DNA from: a virus
Taxonomy: Duplodnaviria; Caudoviricetes
Virus record (IMG/VR): IMGVR_UViG_3300012988_000019
Span: 1 to 54,102 of that record
Length of the DNA stretch: 54,102 nt
Direction: 5' to 3' (one strand)
Below are positions 2,356 to 46,913 of the stretch, piece after piece. Position numbers and translations under genes: made by a program. Under the pieces are notes generated by a model. It saw only the letters and a list, made by a program, of their open reading frames with translations, searched no databases and had not been told where the DNA came from. Every line of letters starts with the position of its first letter. Position 1 is the first letter of the stretch.

Positions 2356-3900
2356 CTACGCTTCGGTGCCCGAGCTTTCGTTCGGACGGTCCTTGTTGTT
2401 GCTCGAGTTCTGATCCTCGAGCGTGTTCCCGTCGGTCGACGTCTCGTCGTCCTCGGAAGTCTCTTCGTCGTCGCCCTGGTCCTCCTGCTGGTTCTTGGAG
2501 ACCGCGTTGCGAGCGAGGTCCTCGTCGATCTGGTCCTGGATGTTGCGGGGGAACTCGTACCCCAGCTTCTCCATCTCGTCGCGGTAGTACTTCGTCGAGA
2601 TGACCCGTCGGTCGAGCATGTTGTTGAGCTCCTCGACCTTGGCCTTGCGGTCAGTCGGGAGCTTGTCACCGATGGTCGGAACGACCTCGCCCTCGAGCGC
2701 CTCGTGCTCGAAGACCTCGTGCCAAACCATCCAGTCGTAGAAGAGCTGCTTGAGCCGAGCGATACCGGCCTGGTCTCGCTGCTCGACCTTGGCGAGCGTT
2801 GGCATGAACTTGATCGCCAGCGCGATACCGGACTGAGCCACCTGAGCATCGACCTTGCCGAGGGCCACGTCGCTCAGCGAGGCGCCCTCCATCATCTTCC
2901 GCTCGATGTAGCTGATCTGGTCCGTGGCAGGGGTGATCGACGTGACCCCCTCGACGCGGCGGAAGTAGGAGCCCTGAGGCACCTCCATGACTCGACCCGG
3001 GGCGACCTCCCAGTCGACCTCCGCGCCGGAGTCGTTCACCGGACGGCCACCGTCCGTGGCGTAGACACCCAGGCCCTCAAGCGAGAGCGAAGCCGAGACG
3101 TCAGTCGCGCTCTGCGAGACCGTCTGGAGCAGCGACTCGAAGCCGCGCAGCTCGGAAGAACCGAAGTCCTCCCCGTCCCAGGCCCGGTTACGGAACCAGT
3201 AGACGGGGATGGTGTCGATGCGCTGGTCCAGGTAGCCCTTGGCGAGGATGGTGCGCACCAGCTTGGGCTGCTCGCCGTACCACTTCGGCTCGAGCTCGTA
3301 GATGCCCTGCTGGCGGCTCACCCGGCGGTTGCCGAGCTCATCCTCCTCGAGCTCATACGTCAGCTTGTTGACGTAGCTCTTGTTGTCGTTCGGGTCGTTG
3401 TAGACCGTGACGAGGTGGCACTTGAGCATCTTGTCCGGCGTGTGCATGTCCCACACCGGGAAGACCGACCCGGGGTCGACCGAGTTCAGCGAGAGGCGTC
3501 GCCCCTCCCTCTTCTTGGGGTTACCGGTGAGGTGGAAGACGAAGTCTCCCTTGGCGACACCGGCATGCTTGGCGGTGTGGAACCTCGAGTAGAAGGCCTC
3601 CCGGTCCAGAAAGGCCTGCAGCGTCTTCTTGGTAGCAGCCGATCCACCATCAACCACCAGCTCCAGACCCTTGAGGATGTAGTAGGCAGTCGTGTCGACG
3701 ATCACTCGAGCGTTCGGGATGTACAGCGGCTGCTCACCCTCGAGCACTCGCAGCGAGAACTGGCGCGGCTCGTTCTGGTAGAGCTCGTTGTACTTCTCGT
3801 AGGCCGCGATGCGGTCCTGCTCGTCCTGGGGGATCCAGACTGGTCGAGCAACACCGAGGAATCGGCGTACGCTGGACCACTGGTTCGGGTCGTCGCTCAT
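2356..3900 (-). CDS. Portal protein
   Basis: 514 aa directly downstream of terminase; AQSGIALAIKFMP motif resembles SPP1-like portals. Confidence 0.85.
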   Translation of the reverse strand: MSDDPNQWSSVRRFLGVARPVWIPQDEQDRIAAYEKYNELYQNEPRQFSLRVLEGEQPLYIPNARVIVDTTAYYILKGLELVVDGGSAATKKTLQAFLDREAFYSRFHTAKHAGVAKGDFVFHLTGNPKKREGRRLSLNSVDPGSVFPVWDMHTPDKMLKCHLVTVYNDPNDNKSYVNKLTYELEEDELGNRRVSRQQGIYELEPKWYGEQPKLVRTILAKGYLDQRIDTIPVYWFRNRAWDGEDFGSSELRGFESLLQTVSQSATDVSASLSLEGLGVYATDGGRPVNDSGAEVDWEVAPGRVMEVPQGSYFRRVEGVTSITPATDQISYIERKMMEGASLSDVALGKVDAQVAQSGIALAIKFMPTLAKVEQRDQAGIARLKQLFYDWMVWHEVFEHEALEGEVVPTIGDKLPTDRKAKVEELNNMLDRRVISTKYYRDEMEKLGYEFPRNIQDQIDEDLARNAVSKNQQEDQGDDEETSEDDETSTDGNTLEDQNSSNNKDRPNESSGTEA

Positions 3901-5721: not shown

Positions 5722-6075
5722 TCAGTACCAGGTTGGGGTCAGCTCGCCATCGGTGACTGCGATGACGAGGTGACTGAGTGGTTCGACCCTCTGGGCGAGG
5801 TCGACCCGAGATGGACCGACCCCGCCGCCGGGGTGAGAATGCCAGAGGGTGAGCTTCTCGAGTGTCGCCAAGGAAAGAGGCAGGTGGTTGGAGAGAAGTA
5901 CCTTCTGGATCTCAAGCCTGCTGACTGTGAACCTGTTGGTCGGGTTCTCAGCCTCGTTGGGGAGCTGAACCACCGTGCCGTCCGGTAGGATCAGCCCAGC
6001 GGCCTCGTTCGGCATCTCGGGCAGGATGATCTGCTCGAGCTGCCTCATCAGCCGGGGCGTCAGGACGTGCAGCAC
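5722..6075 (-). CDS. JAB/MPN (JAMM) metalloprotease
   Basis: EAAGLI...WHSHPGGGVGPSRVD matches E...HxH-x7-S-x2-D. Confidence 0.85.
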   Translation of the reverse strand: MLHVLTPRLMRQLEQIILPEMPNEAAGLILPDGTVVQLPNEAENPTNRFTVSRLEIQKVLLSNHLPLSLATLEKLTLWHSHPGGGVGPSRVDLAQRVEPLSHLVIAVTDGELTPTWY

Positions 6076-6346: not shown

Positions 6347-7040
6347 CGCCGAGCTCCGATTCGTCGAAGTCCTCGGAAACCTGAGCAGCCATCTCCATGG
6401 TGATGCCCGGGTAGTGAGCCACCGAGTAACCCTGGCCCGTGTCGGGGTTCATCGCCGCCTGGGAGGGGTTCACCATCACCTGGCCGAGGATGCCCTGCAG
6501 CTTGACCGAGACATCGGCCTCGAGTCGCTGCTTGGGCTTGCCAACCACGTGCTCGATCAGGAACTTGGCCGCCTCGAGCTTCGTACCTGCCGGTACGATC
6601 GGCTTGCCCTTGTCGTCGTAGTCCTCGTTCTCGAGGATGTTCTTGATCGCCTGGACCGCGTCAACGGTCGTGGCGTTCATCTCCGACTTGATCGCGGCAG
6701 TGTACCGCTCCATGGCCTGTTCGTGAACAGCCGCGGTGATCCACTTCGGCGCTCGACCTCGGAAGGTCCCATCGGCAGAGCGAGGGCGGCCGTGAGCCAG
6801 CTCTTCCAGGTCCCACTCGTCGAGCGGCTTCTGGAAGAGGTAGTCAGCCTCCTGCTCAGTCATTCGTTCCGAGCGAGCCATCTTGCGTCGGGCTCGAGCT
6901 CGGATCTGCTTGGGCGTCAGGAGCTTGCCTTCCGCGGTGCGGGGCGGCTCTCGACGAGCCAGCTGGTCCTGGATGACCCCGGACTTGTGCTGACGATGGT
7001 CAGGGCTGTTCCTGAAGTCCACTGTCATCACGGATGCCAT
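6339..7040 (-). CDS. Putative terminase small subunit
   Basis: ATG 7040 with GAGGAGG RBS; helical 233 aa protein upstream of terminase (KLEAAKFLIEHVVGKPKQ). Confidence 0.6.
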   Translation of the reverse strand: MASVMTVDFRNSPDHRQHKSGVIQDQLARREPPRTAEGKLLTPKQIRARARRKMARSERMTEQEADYLFQKPLDEWDLEELAHGRPRSADGTFRGRAPKWITAAVHEQAMERYTAAIKSEMNATTVDAVQAIKNILENEDYDDKGKPIVPAGTKLEAAKFLIEHVVGKPKQRLEADVSVKLQGILGQVMVNPSQAAMNPDTGQGYSVAHYPGITMEMAAQVSEDFDESELGDG

Positions 7041-7506: not shown

Positions 7507-8646
7507 TCAGATCGTGTGGCGGCGGCGGTAGGCGACCGCCCCGACCGTGCCGGCACCGGCGGCGAGCAGCGCACCGGCGGTCCCGAGGGCGCCGAGGTCG
7601 GACCCGGTGTGGGCGAGCTCGGTGTCGTCGTTGGCCGGCGCGGCGACCTTGGCCGGGGTGACCGGCGCGGTGACCGTGACCGGGGCGGTGACGGAGATCG
7701 GCGTCGTGATCACCGGGTTGTCGACCGGCGTCGTCGGCTCCTCGACCGGGGTCTCGGGGTCGGTCGGGTCCTCGGGGTCGACGGGCGTCTCACCCGGCTC
7801 CTCCTCGCAGACCGTCGGGGCGATGTACTCCTGTCCGGGGTCGATCATCTCCGTGATGCCCTCGCCGGACCGCTCGTTCCCCGTCGGCTCGTAGCTGGCG
7901 TCGGGGGCCTTCCAGCCGGCGTCGCGCCAGACCAGCTCGGTCGAGTCCTCGGTGCCCGGGATGTAGTCCGGGTTCGGGATGGTCGGACCGGTGTAGTCCG
8001 GGTTGGGGATCGTCTCGTCGCCCTCGGCGTCGTGGTTGACGGTCTCGGTCCAGGCCTCGCGGATGGTGACCGTCTCGTCCCAGGCCTCCTTGATCAGGGC
8101 ACCCGGGCGGGTCTGGCCGGTCTGGGTGTAGCGGTACTCCGTGGAGACCTTGCGCTTCTTGCCGTCGGTCGACTGCACCGCCGAGTGCGGGCCGGCCTCG
8201 GTGAAGTTGGCGTCGGCCCACTTGGTCGAGTTGCCCGACCAGTTCTCCCAGCCGAAGGTCTCGCCGGTGTTGACCCAGCCCAGCCACCCGGTCTGCTGCT
8301 GGATGATGCCGCGGACCTGCTTGATGTACAGGTACTCGGTGGCGTACTCGGCGTCGTGGTGGATGACCGTGGTCTCCGCCGGGTGGTTGATCGTCTCGGT
8401 CCAGGCCGGCTTGTAGTCGGGGTTCGGGATCGTCGGCGAGACCGGGTTCGGCAGCGTCTCCTCGCCCTGGGCGGGGGTGCCGGCGATGGTGTGGAGGTAC
8501 TCGTACTGCACCGCGTAGGTCGGCGCGATGTACTCCTGGCCCGGGTCGGGCACGCACTCGGTGGCCGAGGCGATGGGGGCGAAGATCAGGCCGAGGGCGA
8601 TGGCGCCCGGGGCGGCGAGGGTGTAGAGGAAGCGCGACTTGCGCAT
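7507..8646 (-). CDS. Secreted sortase-anchored (LAxTG) cell-wall protein
   Basis: Signal peptide (ASA/TE), Pro/Thr-rich linker, LAHTG, hydrophobic helix, RRRH tail. Confidence 0.85.
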   Translation of the reverse strand: MRKSRFLYTLAAPGAIALGLIFAPIASATECVPDPGQEYIAPTYAVQYEYLHTIAGTPAQGEETLPNPVSPTIPNPDYKPAWTETINHPAETTVIHHDAEYATEYLYIKQVRGIIQQQTGWLGWVNTGETFGWENWSGNSTKWADANFTEAGPHSAVQSTDGKKRKVSTEYRYTQTGQTRPGALIKEAWDETVTIREAWTETVNHDAEGDETIPNPDYTGPTIPNPDYIPGTEDSTELVWRDAGWKAPDASYEPTGNERSGEGITEMIDPGQEYIAPTVCEEEPGETPVDPEDPTDPETPVEEPTTPVDNPVITTPISVTAPVTVTAPVTPAKVAAPANDDTELAHTGSDLGALGTAGALLAAGAGTVGAVAYRRRHTI

Positions 8647-8908: not shown

Positions 8909-8937
8909 ATACTAGGCTACTGCGTACCGGATGTCAA
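8909..8937 (-). promoter_or_regulatory. SigA-type promoter TTGACA-17-TAGTAT
   Basis: Consensus boxes with 17 bp spacer. Confidence 0.8.
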
Positions 8938-9432
8938 CGACGAATCGAGTGCCGGAGCGGGAACTTCATCCGGTTCCACACCCGGTTGGTGAGCCGCATC
9001 GCGACCCAGAGCGGAACCACCTTCTTCACCCACTTCCTCTCCTCGCTGAGGAGGTAGTAGGTCTTGCCGGCGTCGTTCGAACGCCTCGCCGCGGCGGCGG
9101 TTCTGCCAGATCATGTCGCCGACCCCGATCCAGTCCGCCGGGTCGGTCGTCAGCGGGTTGAGGTTCTCGAAGTTCAGCAGCCGCTGCAGGGTCTGCAGGC
9201 TGTACGAGGCCGACATGCCCGAGTGCCCCTGCTGGCTGAAGCGGATCACCAGGTCCATGATGTCGTACGCCATCTGGCGGTTCATCTTGTCCGAGCCGGG
9301 GTAGCCCATGCCGCTCAGCTCACGCATGGCGTGCAGCACGAGGTTGCTCTCGAAGCTGGCGTCGTAGTCGGAGTCCCGCCACTGCGGGAACTCAGCGCGG
9401 CGATCACGCAGGGGCTTGTCGCTGGTGATCAT
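8934..9432 (-). pseudogene. Phage protein (FSQQGHSGMSA motif) with apparent frameshift near 9078
   Basis: After ...WQNRRRGEAF the adjacent frame reads NDAGKTYYLL... to TGA at 8934. Confidence 0.6.
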
Positions 9433-9689
9433 CAGTCCTCCAGGTTGGCGCAGTGCTCGTCCCACTCGGGAACGCGCATCACGGCGTTGTAGTCACGGGT
9501 GGTGGTCGCGAAGGCGATGTCGTCGATGCACACCCGGGTGATGTTCGGGTGCTGGTCGACGTTGCCGTAGATCGTGATCTCGTCCGGCTCCTCGAACGGG
9601 ACGTTCTCGACGTCGTACTGCTGCGCGCAGCCCGCGGTCAGGGTGACCAGAGCCGCTGCTGCCAGCACGGCAGCGAGCCTCTTCTTCAT
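9432..9689 (-). CDS. Lipoprotein
   Basis: MKKR, hydrophobic stretch, lipobox LTAG-C. Confidence 0.75.
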   Translation of the reverse strand: MKKRLAAVLAAAALVTLTAGCAQQYDVENVPFEEPDEITIYGNVDQHPNITRVCIDDIAFATTTRDYNAVMRVPEWDEHCANLED

Positions 9690-42866: not shown

Positions 42867-42950
42867 ATACTATATACACAGATCACTAATGTCAAAGTGG
42901 GAAGCACTGCACCTTCCAGCCTTGACATGATAGCCATGGCTCATTAGATT
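42867..42950. promoter_or_regulatory. Divergent promoters: minus TTGACA-17-TAGTAT (42867-42895) and plus TTGACA-17-TAGATT (42922-42950)
   Basis: Perfect -35 boxes with 17 bp spacers. Confidence 0.8.
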
Positions 42951-43019: not shown

Positions 43020-43490
43020 ATGGCCCGAGCCCGTGCCGCCGCCAAGCCCGCCGTCGAGGTCGAGGAGGAGGTGGAGGCCACCGAGGAGACCCAGGAGGTC
43101 GCCTTCGGCGTCGCCGACATCGTCGCCCTGATCAAGACCAAGTTCAAGCAGGACACCACCACCCGCGAGCTGCGGACCCTGCTCCGCAAGATGGCCCGCG
43201 ACGGCCGCCTCGACCGCGAGATCGTCGCCGGCAACCGGGCCCGCTGGGAGTGGTCCGGCCCGAACGACCCCGAGGTCAAGGCCATCCTCAAGGCCTTCAA
43301 GGACGGCGAGCTCGAGGCCGACAAGAAGGAGAAGCTCGAGGCGCTGAAGCAGCGCAAGGCCGAGCAGAAGGCCGCGGCCGCCGCCGAGGCGGAGAAGGCC
43401 GAGAAGGCCGCCGCCAAGAAGGGCAAGAAGGCCGCGGTCGTCGAGGTCGAGGACGACGACGAGGACCTCGAGGACGACGACGAGTCCTGA
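43020..43490 (+). CDS. Putative HTH DNA-binding protein with Lys/Ala-rich and acidic tail
   Basis: AAGGAG RBS; TTRELRTLLRK...RWEW; extreme GC3 bias. Confidence 0.75.
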   Translation: MARARAAAKPAVEVEEEVEATEETQEVAFGVADIVALIKTKFKQDTTTRELRTLLRKMARDGRLDREIVAGNRARWEWSGPNDPEVKAILKAFKDGELEADKKEKLEALKQRKAEQKAAAAAEAEKAEKAAAKKGKKAAVVEVEDDDEDLEDDDES

Positions 43491-43541: not shown

Positions 43542-43665
43542 GGGGAGCTAGCTCAATCGGCAGAGCATCCGGCGCGCCCATGGACATGATGATACCGCCT
43601 TACGAGGTACTGGATCCAGGACCATGCGGATGGGAAGTATCGAGGTTCGAATCCTCGGCTCTCCA
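43542..43665 (+). ncRNA. tRNA-like RNA with Ala-type acceptor stem and about 50 nt extra
   Basis: GGGGAGC/GCTCTCC-A acceptor; GCTC/GAGC D arm; CGAGG-TTCGAAT-CCTCG T arm; non-canonical centre. Confidence 0.75.
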
Positions 43666-43848: not shown

Positions 43849-44041
43849 CTGGTAGATGGCTCAGAATCGCCGGCCCCTCACCTGACCTCATCACTCGACC
43901 CCACCCCTAACGGGCGATTACGCGCTTCCCTGGCCCCATCCTAGGGGTGCATGATCGCCCGACGCGTCGCGATCGATCACGGCCCGACACACCACGAAGC
44001 CCCCCCACACCCGAGTGATCGAGCGCGGAGGGGCAACGGTA

Positions 44042-45433
44042 CTAGCTGGTGTAGGCGTCAACGGGCTCAAGCGTTACAATGGCCCAATCACTAGTCCCTC
44101 CCCCGCCAGAAATAGTACCACTGGCGTTTCGGTTCACGGCCTGTACCCGCACCCGTACGGTAACTCCCGGATCAATCACGAGCTCAGCATCGATCAGCCG
44201 GGAAGCGAGCTGTGACGCAGATACTGTGTTGTCTCGATGCTCGTGTCGGATAGCCTCAGTACCCCCAATCGAGAGATCGGCGATCAGGGAGGGGGAGGCA
44301 TTAGCAGCCGAGTTGGTAAGCATGGCGGAGGCTCGGACCTTGAGTAGAGCCTTACTATCCGGGAAGGGGTTGGTGAAGTTGGCATCAAACATCACCGCTG
44401 CGACAGTACCAATTGCACTAACCGCAGTCATGGGGCCAGTGTAGGTTTGCATCTTGGGTGAAGCCGGGCCAGTGGCCCCCGTGTTACCGCGGGGGATCAC
44501 CAGGTTGAGCTGCTTATCGGGGGAGTCCCCGGTAATCGTGGCCTGTGCCGCAGAACCCGCTGCCCCAGTGGTAACAGTGCCAATGGAGAGTGTATCCCCA
44601 TCAGCCCCATCGACTCCCGGGTTTCCCCTGGGGATGGTCAGATCGAGAACCTTGTTCGGAGAAACACCGGTGATCGAAGCTACTGCCTCAGTACCAGGGT
44701 CGCCCGTCGTGATGGTGCCCATGGTGAGCTTGTCACCCGGGGACCCCGCATCACCCTTGTCACCCTTGGGGCCGATACTCCCATCGGCCCCCGGAGGACC
44801 CTCCAGCTCACTCGTCAGGATCAGATCGACCCAGGGCAGCTCAGGCGTATCGACATACCGCCACTGGATGGCCGTCCCTGAGTTCCTGAGCTCGACCTCC
44901 CGACCATCATCACCCATGATGATACCACCACCATCGATGATGTCCTTGATGTCCTGGTAGATCTGCTCGACCTCGGCGACACCCTCGGTACTCACCACGA
45001 CTACCGTGCCGGGATCGGGGTCGACACCCATCGCCATGGCCAGATCGATGGTCCCGTTCACCGGAACCTCGAAGACCACCGGTACCGGCTGAGCCAGCCC
45101 ACTCAGCTCGTTGAAGTTGAACCGAGCAGTGAACTGGACGTGATCGGGCTGGCCGGCAGGCTGCTCACTCGCCATCATCCAGACCCCAGGTGTGGAGCTG
45201 TTCGGCGCGTAGAGATCCCCGTTGATCACCCGGCACTCGAGGATGGAGATCACTGCCGTCCTCGGCGGGTCGGTGTTGATGAACCGCATGAGAGGAGTGT
45301 TCGGCGTGATGGTTACGGTACCAGTGAGAGGCACCTCATCCGGCACAGTGCCCGGGTCGTTGGAGTCCGCCACGAAGGAGACAAACCGACCGATCACCTT
45401 GCCATACTGGACCTGGCTAGGAACGTCAACCAT
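44042..45433 (-). CDS. Tail fibre / minor tail protein with collagen-like repeats
   Basis: GPKGDKGDAG Gly-X-Y repeats; paralog of the next gene. Confidence 0.75.
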   Translation of the reverse strand: MVDVPSQVQYGKVIGRFVSFVADSNDPGTVPDEVPLTGTVTITPNTPLMRFINTDPPRTAVISILECRVINGDLYAPNSSTPGVWMMASEQPAGQPDHVQFTARFNFNELSGLAQPVPVVFEVPVNGTIDLAMAMGVDPDPGTVVVVSTEGVAEVEQIYQDIKDIIDGGGIIMGDDGREVELRNSGTAIQWRYVDTPELPWVDLILTSELEGPPGADGSIGPKGDKGDAGSPGDKLTMGTITTGDPGTEAVASITGVSPNKVLDLTIPRGNPGVDGADGDTLSIGTVTTGAAGSAAQATITGDSPDKQLNLVIPRGNTGATGPASPKMQTYTGPMTAVSAIGTVAAVMFDANFTNPFPDSKALLKVRASAMLTNSAANASPSLIADLSIGGTEAIRHEHRDNTVSASQLASRLIDAELVIDPGVTVRVRVQAVNRNASGTISGGGGTSDWAIVTLEPVDAYTS

Positions 45434-45443
45434 GGTGAGCCTC

Positions 45444-46913
45444 CTACGGCTTCTCGACGGTCAGCAGACCGGGTCGGTTACTAGCAGAAATCCAGGTCAC
45501 CTGACCGGTACCACCGGCGCGATAAACCCAGACCCCATAAGTAACAGAGCCCTCGGGGGGAGTGTCCTTAGTACGAAGAATGACCGTAGAAGGCACTCCG
45601 GCGTAGGGCACCAGGATCACGAAGTTACCGACCTCGGGATCGGTTGTAGCAGTACCTCGACGGATGATGATGCCCAGTCGGTCATTGGCCACTGTGCACT
45701 GAAGGTGGCCAGAGAGCTCGAGCAGCAGGTCACTACCAGTAGCGGCGACCGTTACCGTCAGCTGAGACATCAGGACCTGAGTACTGTCAGTCGGGCCATA
45801 GTTCACTACCGACTGGCTCAGTCCGATCTTCCCTCGAGCCTCGAGCGCAGTAACTCGATTGGTCAGGTTCTGCTGAAGTGCAGTGACTGCGGCCTTGAAT
45901 ACCGCTGCGGTGATGGCGCTCTTGGTAGTGTCAGTACCCGTGGTGATCTGAGCCTGGGTGAGAGCCGGTAGAGCAGTACCGTCCGCACCAGCAGGACCAG
46001 TGATGGAAGAGAGAGAGACCAGGTTGCTCCACACCGGGTCACCGACATACTGCCACTGGATGTAGCCACCCGAGACGCGAAGCTGGACCTGCCTCCCGTC
46101 CGCACCAGGGTTACCATTCGACCCATCGGCACCCTTCGGGAGACCCAGGTTCAGCACCTGGTTAGGGGCCGCCCCCGTAATACTCGCCTGCGGGGTCGAG
46201 GTCGAAGTGACGCTGCCGATCGTCAGGGAGTTGGGCGGTCCGGCTTCTCCATCGTCGCCCTTATCGCCCTTGAGCCCCTGGGGGCCCTGCAGGTCGGCCA
46301 GCATGACGAGAGATGCCCAGAGAGTCGTTCCCGAGTACCGCCACTCGATAGCCGTGTCGCTGGCCCGCAGCTCGACCTCTCGACCATCAGCACCCTGGAT
46401 CATGCCGCCACCGGCGATGATGTCCTGAATCTGCTGGTAGATCTCCTGGATGTCGGCCCAGTCCTCGTGAGTCACCAGCTCGACCGTACCCGGGTCAGGC
46501 GAGACAGGCACGATTGTGGTGAGATCGACCTCGGTGTCGGGCGGAACTTCGATGATCACGGGCGACGGCTGCTGGGTCGAGGTAAGACCATCGAACTGGA
46601 AGGTGGCAGTCCACTGGATGTTGCTCGGCTGACCCTCCGGCTGCTCCGAAGCGACCAGGTTAACTCCGGGTTCGGTGTTGCCCTCTGCAGTAAGCCAGCC
46701 ATCGACCAGGGTGCAAACAATGGGCGAAATCACCGCGAGGCGTGCTGGGTCGGTAGTCGGGAACCGCATGATGCGGACGTTGGGCGTGAGCGTGATGGTG
46801 CCGCCCAGAGGCAGCTCCTCGGGCAGGTTACCCGGGTCGTCACTGTCAGCCACCACCAGGACGAACCGCCCGACTACCCGACCGTAGCGGACCTCACTGG
46901 GAACATCGGCCAT
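45444..46913 (-). CDS. Tail fibre / minor tail protein with collagen-like repeats
   Basis: GPQGLKGDKGD; two DGRxVxLR..IxWxY units. Confidence 0.75.
   Translation of the reverse strand: MADVPSEVRYGRVVGRFVLVVADSDDPGNLPEELPLGGTITLTPNVRIMRFPTTDPARLAVISPIVCTLVDGWLTAEGNTEPGVNLVASEQPEGQPSNIQWTATFQFDGLTSTQQPSPVIIEVPPDTEVDLTTIVPVSPDPGTVELVTHEDWADIQEIYQQIQDIIAGGGMIQGADGREVELRASDTAIEWRYSGTTLWASLVMLADLQGPQGLKGDKGDDGEAGPPNSLTIGSVTSTSTPQASITGAAPNQVLNLGLPKGADGSNGNPGADGRQVQLRVSGGYIQWQYVGDPVWSNLVSLSSITGPAGADGTALPALTQAQITTGTDTTKSAITAAVFKAAVTALQQNLTNRVTALEARGKIGLSQSVVNYGPTDSTQVLMSQLTVTVAATGSDLLLELSGHLQCTVANDRLGIIIRRGTATTDPEVGNFVILVPYAGVPSTVILRTKDTPPEGSVTYGVWVYRAGGTGQVTWISASNRPGLLTVEKP

Follow-up and report, generated by a model that had tools for sequence, protein, structure and literature searches.

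A phage tRNA-like gene with an alanine-type acceptor and an anticodon loop split by a 51-nucleotide block

What is a soil phage likely to gain from an RNA gene that keeps the upper half of a transfer RNA (tRNA), alanine signals included, and has no contiguous anticodon arm? The question is raised by a 124-nucleotide (nt) element in IMG/VR virus record IMGVR_UViG_3300012988_000019, the whole of which (54,102 bp, estimated completeness 91%, G+C about 63%) was analysed here and is called the window. Because its SNF2-type helicase is closest to those of Curtobacterium and Microbacterium phages (72% identity to Curtobacterium phage Shrew, among the nearest named relatives by this protein, and 67% to Microbacterium phages Triscuit and Huwbert), the window is classed as an actinophage genome, with a host probably drawn from the Microbacteriaceae. 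We tentatively propose that the element is a real, maintained phage RNA that would be chargeable with alanine and, as transcribed, unable to decode.

The element is an entire tRNA-like gene at 43542..43665 on the plus strand. Its acceptor 5' strand, GGGGAGC (43542..43548, supplying G1, G2 and G3), forms seven of seven pairs with 43658-43664, the 3' strand GCUCUCC, which supplies U70, C71 and C72 and together with the discriminator A73 occupies 43658..43665. U8 and A9 lead into the D arm GCUC-AAUCGGCA-GAGC, with A14, G18, G19 and A21, which A26 follows (43549..43567), and the T arm reads CGAGG-UUCGAAU-CCUCG (43641..43657). The paired scaffold is complete (acceptor 7/7, D stem 4/4 and T stem 5/5, i.e., 16/16), and the bases that make tertiary contacts, U8, A14, G18, G19 and UUCGA, are all intact. 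On direct reading, the acceptor holds the set that marks tRNA-Ala, namely G1-C72, G2-C71, G3.U70 and A73. Alanyl-tRNA synthetase (AlaRS) takes G3.U70 in the acceptor helix as its recognition signal, and minihelices with no anticodon are among its substrates. The bases after A73 are CUC, so the CCA end is not encoded. As encoded, the element does not present what a decoding tRNA needs, a contiguous 5-bp anticodon stem with a 7-nt loop, U33 and a purine at 37; an arm of this kind forms only when 43574-43624 is removed in silico, and then with one G.G mismatch.

An earlier note, made from the letters of the window without database searches, had described a 124-nt tRNA-like RNA with canonical acceptor, D and T arms, G3-U70, A73 and no CCA, and covariance-model scoring bears this description out. 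When a 321-nt stretch was searched with cmscan, RF00005 matched over model positions 1-71 with 43.9 bits (E 2.4e-8; gathering score 29), and the Infernal alignment placed 62 nt as an insertion within the anticodon arm. The note had also anticipated that standard scanners may miss the element, and they do: ARAGORN in default mode reported 0 genes in the whole window, neither tRNA nor tmRNA (transfer-messenger RNA); Rfam at gathering thresholds gave 0 matches over the whole window; and an RF00005 search of the window's own record also gave 0 matches, such that the element surfaces only in the short-stretch search. As a side observation on sequences of this kind, many 5' leaders (20 nt) of tRNAs and tRNA-like genes in the window and its relatives end in a loose CCAC[CT][CAT] motif; the leader directly before G1 is AAACTACCCACTC in the window and AAACGACCACTC in the related record G001.

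Is the window alone in carrying such a gene? An RF00005 scan covered 18 records reached via the helicase and five reached via a 156-amino-acid (156-aa) gene that lies upstream of the element, and a scaffold scanner of our own, set to report only candidates with 7/7 acceptor pairs, a D stem, a T arm and U8, was run on the full DNA of 19 relatives and the window (20 records). Six tRNA-like elements with aberrant centres emerged, in the window (124 nt), G011 (122 nt), G001 (87 nt), G010 (85 nt), G008 (73 nt) and G006 (83 nt). All except that of G006 have the alanine-type acceptor (5/6, in 5/20 records), as against 0/7 of the distinct normal tRNAs in the same 20 records (Lys-CUU, Asn-GUU and tRNAs with a CUUAAAA loop), a difference with a hand-computed Fisher P of 0.005 in a test that rests on 13 genes from related phages. 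As a base rate, 30/505 normal-length tRNAs called by ARAGORN across all loci examined here have an alanine-type acceptor; 25 of these 30 have an alanine anticodon, and the other five are oddities that include the G008 element and a type found in L014. The latter (L014:7618-7691(-) and L023:7473-7546(+)) is a 73-nt tRNA with G3.U70, A73 and an 8-nt loop, CACAUUAG, whose anticodon ARAGORN gives as 'catt'. The CUUAAAA-loop genes (L053, G008:56896-56969; L057, G014:12297-12369; L054, G009:18205-18277) are class I-sized tRNAs of 73-74 nt with a GCC/GGC-type D arm and the anticodon UAA (codon UUA), which is unusual for a leucine tRNA, normally endowed with a long variable arm.

The five alanine-type elements could be aligned at their acceptors and T arms. 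Every acceptor cell pairs (35/35), with compensatory changes at 4:69 (GC/AU), 5:68 (AU/CG/GC), 6:67 (GC/UA) and 7:66 (CG/GC), and 24/25 T-stem cells pair as well, while 1:72, 2:71, 3:70 (G.U) and A73 are invariant in all five. Covariation in relatives was a check that the earlier note had put forward, and its outcome is that the alanine-type acceptor appears to be selected: we argue that a fixed G.U within a covarying helix is the pattern that selection for AlaRS recognition would be expected to leave. Because the bodies of the elements differ in their D arms (GCC/GGC of class II type in G001, class I GCUC/GAGC in the other four), the shared acceptor is not a matter of simple common descent. 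Taken together, these comparisons show that the combination of an alanine-type acceptor with no usable anticodon arm recurs in related phages, under what reads as purifying selection.

Among the centres of the relatives, that of G008 has no insert at all; in place of the arm stands a perfect hairpin of 7 bp, closed by the loop UCA, with C33 paired to G37. When we asked whether a single deletion could regain a canonical arm (U33, purine 37 and no fewer than four of five pairs), the window and G010 elements succeeded, and those of G011, G001, G008 and G006 did not. Non-decoding thus looks like a common property of these elements, since the G008 arm is non-canonical without any insert and four of the six restore no arm.

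Two of these centre types also occur in cultured Microbacterium phages. The G010 centre (GGG / AGUUCA / GGGGC-AUUU-GCCCC / GUCG / CCC) shares 85.7% identity over 63 nt with gene 37 of phage Schubert (L010:3844-3928(-)), which is annotated as tRNA-Pro and has no canonical anticodon arm; where the hairpin reaches its top, the two are related by a C-G to A-U swap. Similarly, the whole 122 nt of G011 has unannotated homologues of 78-79% identity in SallyK (L247:1501-1622), Nike (L248:1501-1622) and Hubbs (L249:1498-1619), each 122 nt long and scoring 41-42 bits with RF00005, situated between the SSB and MazG genes or beside a primase/polymerase gene. In SallyK and Nike, both G3.U70 and A73 are present. 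RNAalifold folds the G011 type into a central hairpin with four compensatory pairs and one broken pair between G011 and the three cultured phages. Because their hairpins are conserved with compensatory changes, the G011- and G010-type centres are maintained structures and not decay. In IMG/VR, the search for further members of the G011 type returned only G011 itself. A 24-nt exact match in Shrew to the T arm and acceptor strand of G001 was not counted, as no 5' acceptor strand could be drawn for it.

How might such an RNA act? On our proposal, a promoter at 42922-42950 would drive transcription of the element along with the 156-aa gene or immediately behind it; the RNA would be excised by RNase P and the 3' processing enzymes of the host, CCA would be added, and AlaRS, being blind to the anticodon, would charge it with alanine. 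Its lower half would be disabled by a 51-nt block, leaving the acceptor/T minihelix and the D/T elbow canonical. The RNA would read no codon, and its alanylated upper half could draw a tRNA-Ala-recognising host factor away, acting as its decoy or sink, or could be an alanyl donor outside ordinary decoding. The element would then belong to a loose class of RNAs from related phages, most of them alanine-type, in which an intact upper half is joined to a remodelled lower half. We prefer the proposal of a maintained, alanine-chargeable, non-decoding RNA because it covers the recurrence, the alanine-type enrichment, the covariation and the insert-free G008 element, and we consider it quite possibly correct, if short of probable.

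Several observations weigh against this proposal. The window element is a singleton; its insert lies beyond the reach of the covariation test and folds no better than shuffles, and both halves of the anticodon loop survive beside it, which is the trace to be expected of an insert that is removed or of a disruption that is recent, and which an RNA kept for long as a non-decoder would have no use for. The five elements occupy three different genomic contexts and share no centre sequence, and to treat them as one family with one function is itself a step of interpretation. No phage partner came to light either: among 990 open reading frames (ORFs) of the five element-bearing records, compared by tblastn across the 20 records, none co-occurs with the element in the sense of being in all five and absent from the seven complete records that have no alanine-type element. 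Moreover, Hubbs (A2-U71, U3-A70) and Schubert (G3-C70), whose centres are homologous to those described above, have perfect acceptor stems that are not of the alanine type. Alanylation would accordingly not be essential to every member, and alanine identity in this class appears frequent, not obligatory; the alanine determinants that the earlier note had read in the window element themselves stand.

We then turned to the centre of the window element. By alignment with MAFFT to normal tRNAs, the anticodon-stem 5' strand UCCGG and C32 lie at 43568..43573; U33, G34, C35, G36, G37 and A38, the remainder of a CUGCGGA loop with the anticodon GCG, at 43625..43630; and the 3' strand UGGGA with the variable loop AGUAU at 43631..43640. 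Between C32 and U33 stands an insert of 51 nt (43574..43624), which, in an alignment of the element with the tRNA-Arg of Streptomyces phage Gilson and two tRNA-Asn genes, forms one gap exactly at this junction. Element positions 8-32, with UCCGG and C32 included, match the 5' halves of ordinary phage tRNA-Asn genes base for base, and from U33 onward, over positions 84-115, the element shares 84% identity with the 3' part of the Gilson gene, a match that is weak alone (E = 4). Rejoined without the insert, the loop CUGCGGA is identical to that of the Gilson tRNA-Arg(GCG), and after removal of 43574-43624 in silico ARAGORN in default mode reads a 74-nt tRNA-Arg(gcg). In the rejoined stem, UCCGG/UGGGA, three Watson-Crick pairs are accompanied by G31.U39 and a mismatch, G30xG40. 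Since 132 of 2000 shuffled centres (6.6%) also yield relaxed single-deletion solutions, the structural coincidence of the restored loop is by itself only moderately significant; the homology that reaches both junctions adds to it.

This split was missing from the earlier note, which had offered two other readings of the centre, a weak arm TCCGG-CGCGCCC-ATGGA and a long arm. Both can be drawn, and neither is thermodynamically special, given a minimum free energy of -42.1 kcal/mol for the whole molecule versus -41.1 +/- 4 for shuffles (z -0.24). The suggestion that CGC in the weak arm is an alanine anticodon does not hold up well: the stem is weak, U33 and a purine at 37 are lacking, and removal of the block restores GCG (Arg), not NGC. 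Allowed introns, ARAGORN gives a further parse, with a 30-nt intron at 32/33, the stem UCCGG/CUGGA, a loop CGAGGUA that has no U33 and a variable region of 26 nt.

The insert itself contains the palindromes CCATGG and CTGGATCCAG, and its first bases together with the exon complete GGCGCGCC. No second copy was found in 2.8 Mb of loci or in 50,697 phage records, which rules it out as a mobile repeat, and at E <= 10 it matches no Rfam ribozyme, RNA family or intron. An antisense role towards the phage's own genes was set aside, the longest match being 13 nt, a length reached in 4.5-9.3% of random sequences. Group I introns of tRNA genes are about 200 nt or more and fold a P1-P9 core in the anticodon loop, dimensions that exclude an insert of only 51 nt. 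Protein-spliced tRNA introns of archaea and eukaryotes are marked by a bulge-helix-bulge at their splice sites or by lying at 37/38, with a splicing endonuclease in the cell; the window insert lies at 32/33. Searches of IMG/VR and JGI metagenome contigs for the same exons with gaps of 35-105 nt yielded no close homologue, the single exon-pattern match (L244) being a tRNA-Asn-like gene that has an extended variable region and no relation to the element. A blastn search against the 50,697 phage records picked up nothing but short stretches of exon shared with ordinary tRNAs, and a 22-mer of the T arm and acceptor 3' strand, searched in genome contigs for a host-tRNA origin, had 0 exact matches.

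Could the 51 nt be removed from the transcript? In this alternative they would be intron-like and would leave, by an unspecified route, a 73-nt tRNA with the loop CUGCGGA and the anticodon GCG, decoding CGC/CGU. The earlier note had listed a tRNA with a removable insert among its options, and that option has gained structural support from the single block at 32/33, the restored phage tRNA-Arg loop, the ARAGORN call that follows removal and the intron-mode parse, which chooses the same junction, though with 30 nt and a long variable arm. There is also a possible parallel, as a passage of the report on Lak megaphages speaks of tRNAs with 'enigmatic introns' (Devoto et al. 2019, PMC6784885). In IMG/VR, a pattern scan returned at least 119 stretches, from which the scaffold filter left 66 tRNA genes of 95-150 nt, and a single deletion regains a strict canonical arm in 23 of the 66; as the pattern fixed U70-C71-C72-A73, this sample cannot be used to estimate enrichment. 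Because of G3.U70, A73 and a C, not an A, at position 20, the product would most likely be charged with alanine, and it would insert alanine at arginine codons, to the harm of phage and host. Further difficulties are the G30xG40 mismatch, the 6.6% of shuffles that do as well, and the absence of any Rfam ribozyme or intron match in the insert. We know of no bacterial splicing route for a 51-nt insert, and Pfam searches of 30 non-structural window ORFs of 94 aa or more detected no RNA ligase, Pnkp, RtcB, kinase, splicing enzyme or endonuclease. Finally, four of the six elements from these records allow no such solution, and G008 is non-canonical without any insert. All in all, we judge removal to be rather unlikely.

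Long tRNA genes deserve mention in their own right, as genes of 95-150 nt with inserts of 40-70 nt are common in IMG/VR phage loci (at least 119 stretches). Examples lie at L162:6159-6286(+), 6377-6505(+) and 6614-6739(+), L233:7740-7863(-) and 8036-8161(-), and L147:9679-9805(-). One subfamily has inserts at about 27-30, a shared stem and a conserved 3' end, ...GANGANGG-TTAYC, followed by a normal loop, e.g., CTTGTAA; it has no Rfam match and looks like an undescribed small intron-like element. At L155:6911-7041(+) and L228:6962-7092(+), alanine-type tRNA-like genes have a centre that resembles a permuted tRNA (T arm, then D arm). The arrangement brings to mind a remark in the same Lak-phage report, according to which an intron could hold a tRNA gene of its own (PMC6784885).

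A different alternative starts from the mosaic look of the exons, tRNA-Asn-like on the 5' side and tRNA-Arg-like on the 3' side: a recent 51-nt insertion into the anticodon loop of a chimeric phage tRNA would have produced a functionless pseudogene whose scaffold has not decayed. The element is indeed a singleton at a unique position, where none of the seven relatives reached via the 156-aa gene has a tRNA-like gene and most show a hairpin and T-run instead. The two halves of the loop are preserved, the centre folds in no special way, and a contig in run X5 with ~92% identity follows the 5' part of the element and is unlike it after 43589. However, the scaffold pairs perfectly throughout (16/16), the insert is no mobile repeat, and the undisrupted ancestor would itself have been odd, an alanine-type tRNA with an arginine anticodon. 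Nor does a single accident sit well with the skew of the alanine-type acceptor towards aberrant genes (5/6 versus 0/7 among normal tRNAs), or with its recurrence beside a disabled centre in four other records, with different bodies and covarying stems. We regard recent disruption as unlikely.

Least likely of all, and in our estimation highly improbable, is that the element acts as a tmRNA does, with its tRNA-like domain (TLD) entering stalled ribosomes or titrating SmpB as proposed for the TLD-only tmRNA of mycobacteriophage DS6A (PMC4131195): G3.U70 and A73 are common to both and DS6A sets an actinophage precedent, yet the window element has a canonical 4-bp D stem where the DS6A TLD, by reading, has a tmRNA-type D loop with no stem, ARAGORN in tRNA and tmRNA mode and Rfam find no tmRNA, there are no pseudoknots, and the sole short stop-ended frame (ARPWT, UGA UGA, by reading) is not tag-like, so that the ribosome rescue raised in the earlier note is unlikely. 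The DS6A TLD was located at L245:28478-28557(+), with 80 nt, G3.U70 and a tmRNA-type D loop. In structural work on tmRNA, SmpB occupies the space of the D stem. DS6A's TLD-only tmRNA is unannotated in its GenBank record, and the phage also encodes an RtcB-like RNA ligase.

Where, then, does the element stand among known RNAs? By the tests that define them, it is not a decoding tRNA, a tmRNA, a group I intron-bearing tRNA or YrlA; as for the last, a mimic of YrlA or Y RNA (RF02553) gave no match at E <= 10, and the termini lie at the acceptor stem, not at a Ro-binding stem. Its closest kinds are tRNA-Ala, the tmRNA TLD, the TLD-only gene of DS6A, the tRNA introns of Lak phages and T4 rnaC/rnaD. 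With tRNA-Ala it shares the acceptor set, the D and T arms and an Rfam score above the cut-off, and it departs from tRNA-Ala in its 124 nt, in having no contiguous arm and no 7-nt loop that combines NGC with U33 and purine 37, and in a restored loop that reads GCG. The elements of SallyK, Nike, Hubbs and Schubert have the same intact upper half and expanded centre; their centres share no sequence with the window insert, however, and are conserved and covarying. The tmRNA TLD and its DS6A counterpart are alike in the alanine-type acceptor, the T arm, the absence of a usable anticodon and, for DS6A, the actinophage setting (Hudson et al. 2014, PMC4131195), whereas the window element keeps the D stem and the start of the anticodon stem and has no tmRNA-type D loop, tag frame or pseudoknots. 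The insert-bearing tRNAs of Lak phages, as far as passages of their report describe them, and of IMG/VR likewise carry tens of bases in or near the anticodon arm and are missed by scanners in bacterial mode; unlike the IMG/VR subfamily, with its ...GGTTAYC 3' end and inserts at ~27-30, the window insert has no such motif and sits at 32/33.

For T4 rnaC and rnaD (species 1 and 2; 139 and 119 nt), one passage of a published account speaks of stable RNAs that neighbour tRNA genes and are 'of yet unknown functions' (PMC9697503). A canonical T arm together with an acceptor-like helix makes up the end of rnaC, but by reading this RNA has no G3.U70 at 3:70, and neither of the two matches RF00005, their only hit being tRNA-Sec with 17.5 bits (E 0.76); there is no sequence similarity to the window element, and with so weak a resemblance we did not retain them as relatives. 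A laboratory design comes close in architecture: the engineered tRNA scaffolds of Ponchon and Dardel reportedly carry foreign RNA in place of the anticodon arm, such that cargo replaces or extends the arm and the upper half secures processing and stability. We know of no natural phage use of a tRNA scaffold for cargo.

The genomic setting bears on how the element would be expressed. Almost all window genes lie on the minus strand; the element, on the plus strand, is placed where the tail-fibre genes end and the early genes begin, and starts 52 nt downstream of the co-oriented 156-aa gene (43020..43490, +). The product of this gene has a K/E/D-rich tail, belongs to no Pfam family and is conserved in relatives, and a sigma-70-like promoter, TTGACA-17-TAGATT, lies upstream (42922..42950, +). 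As no terminator-like site was found between this promoter and the element, co-transcription of the 156-aa gene and the element is plausible. At the seven IMG/VR loci that encode the 156-aa protein, no tRNA-like gene follows it, and most have an inverted repeat and then a T-run. A conserved intergenic motif, ATCACTCGAC, 13-15 nt and GGCGATT, is found at window 43888-43920 and also in several relatives downstream of the 156-aa gene (L002:~3504-3534, L003, L007 and L008). The two adjacent tail-fibre-like proteins (44042-45433(-) and 45444-46913(-)) have their N-terminal ~200 aa in common, together with collagen-like G-x-x repeats. Elsewhere in the window, ORF 8917-9465(-) matches the Pfam family Tad3, an inhibitor of type I Thoeris (E 2.5e-28), and is likely an anti-defence gene; its neighbour, ORF 5722-6075(-), has a Prok-JAB domain.

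A broader possibility, which we hold to be doubtful but worth stating, is that phages with hosts of Microbacteriaceae type encode RNAs that exploit the indifference of AlaRS to the anticodon. Varied tRNA bodies would be fitted with a G3.U70/A73 acceptor and an arm that is disabled or replaced by a cargo hairpin; alanylated and never decoding, they would be decoys or sinks against tRNA-directed defences or quality control, or else alanyl donors. If this is true, the window element would be one such member, its anticodon loop caught split by the 51-nt block. The full-text literature searches made here turned up no description of alanine-type, anticodon-disabled tRNA-likes from actinophages. Phage censuses of tRNA genes would undercount them, as the genes of SallyK, Nike and Hubbs carry no annotation and that of Schubert is wrongly labelled tRNA-Pro; homologous types being present in cultured Microbacterium phages, they are directly testable at the bench. 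The usual explanations for tRNA genes in phages are codon usage and the replacement of host tRNAs cut by defence nucleases. Recurrent phage tRNA-likes that appear non-decoding and ready for alanylation would point instead to the tRNA shape being used outside decoding, the same question that is raised by T4 rnaC/rnaD and the DS6A TLD.

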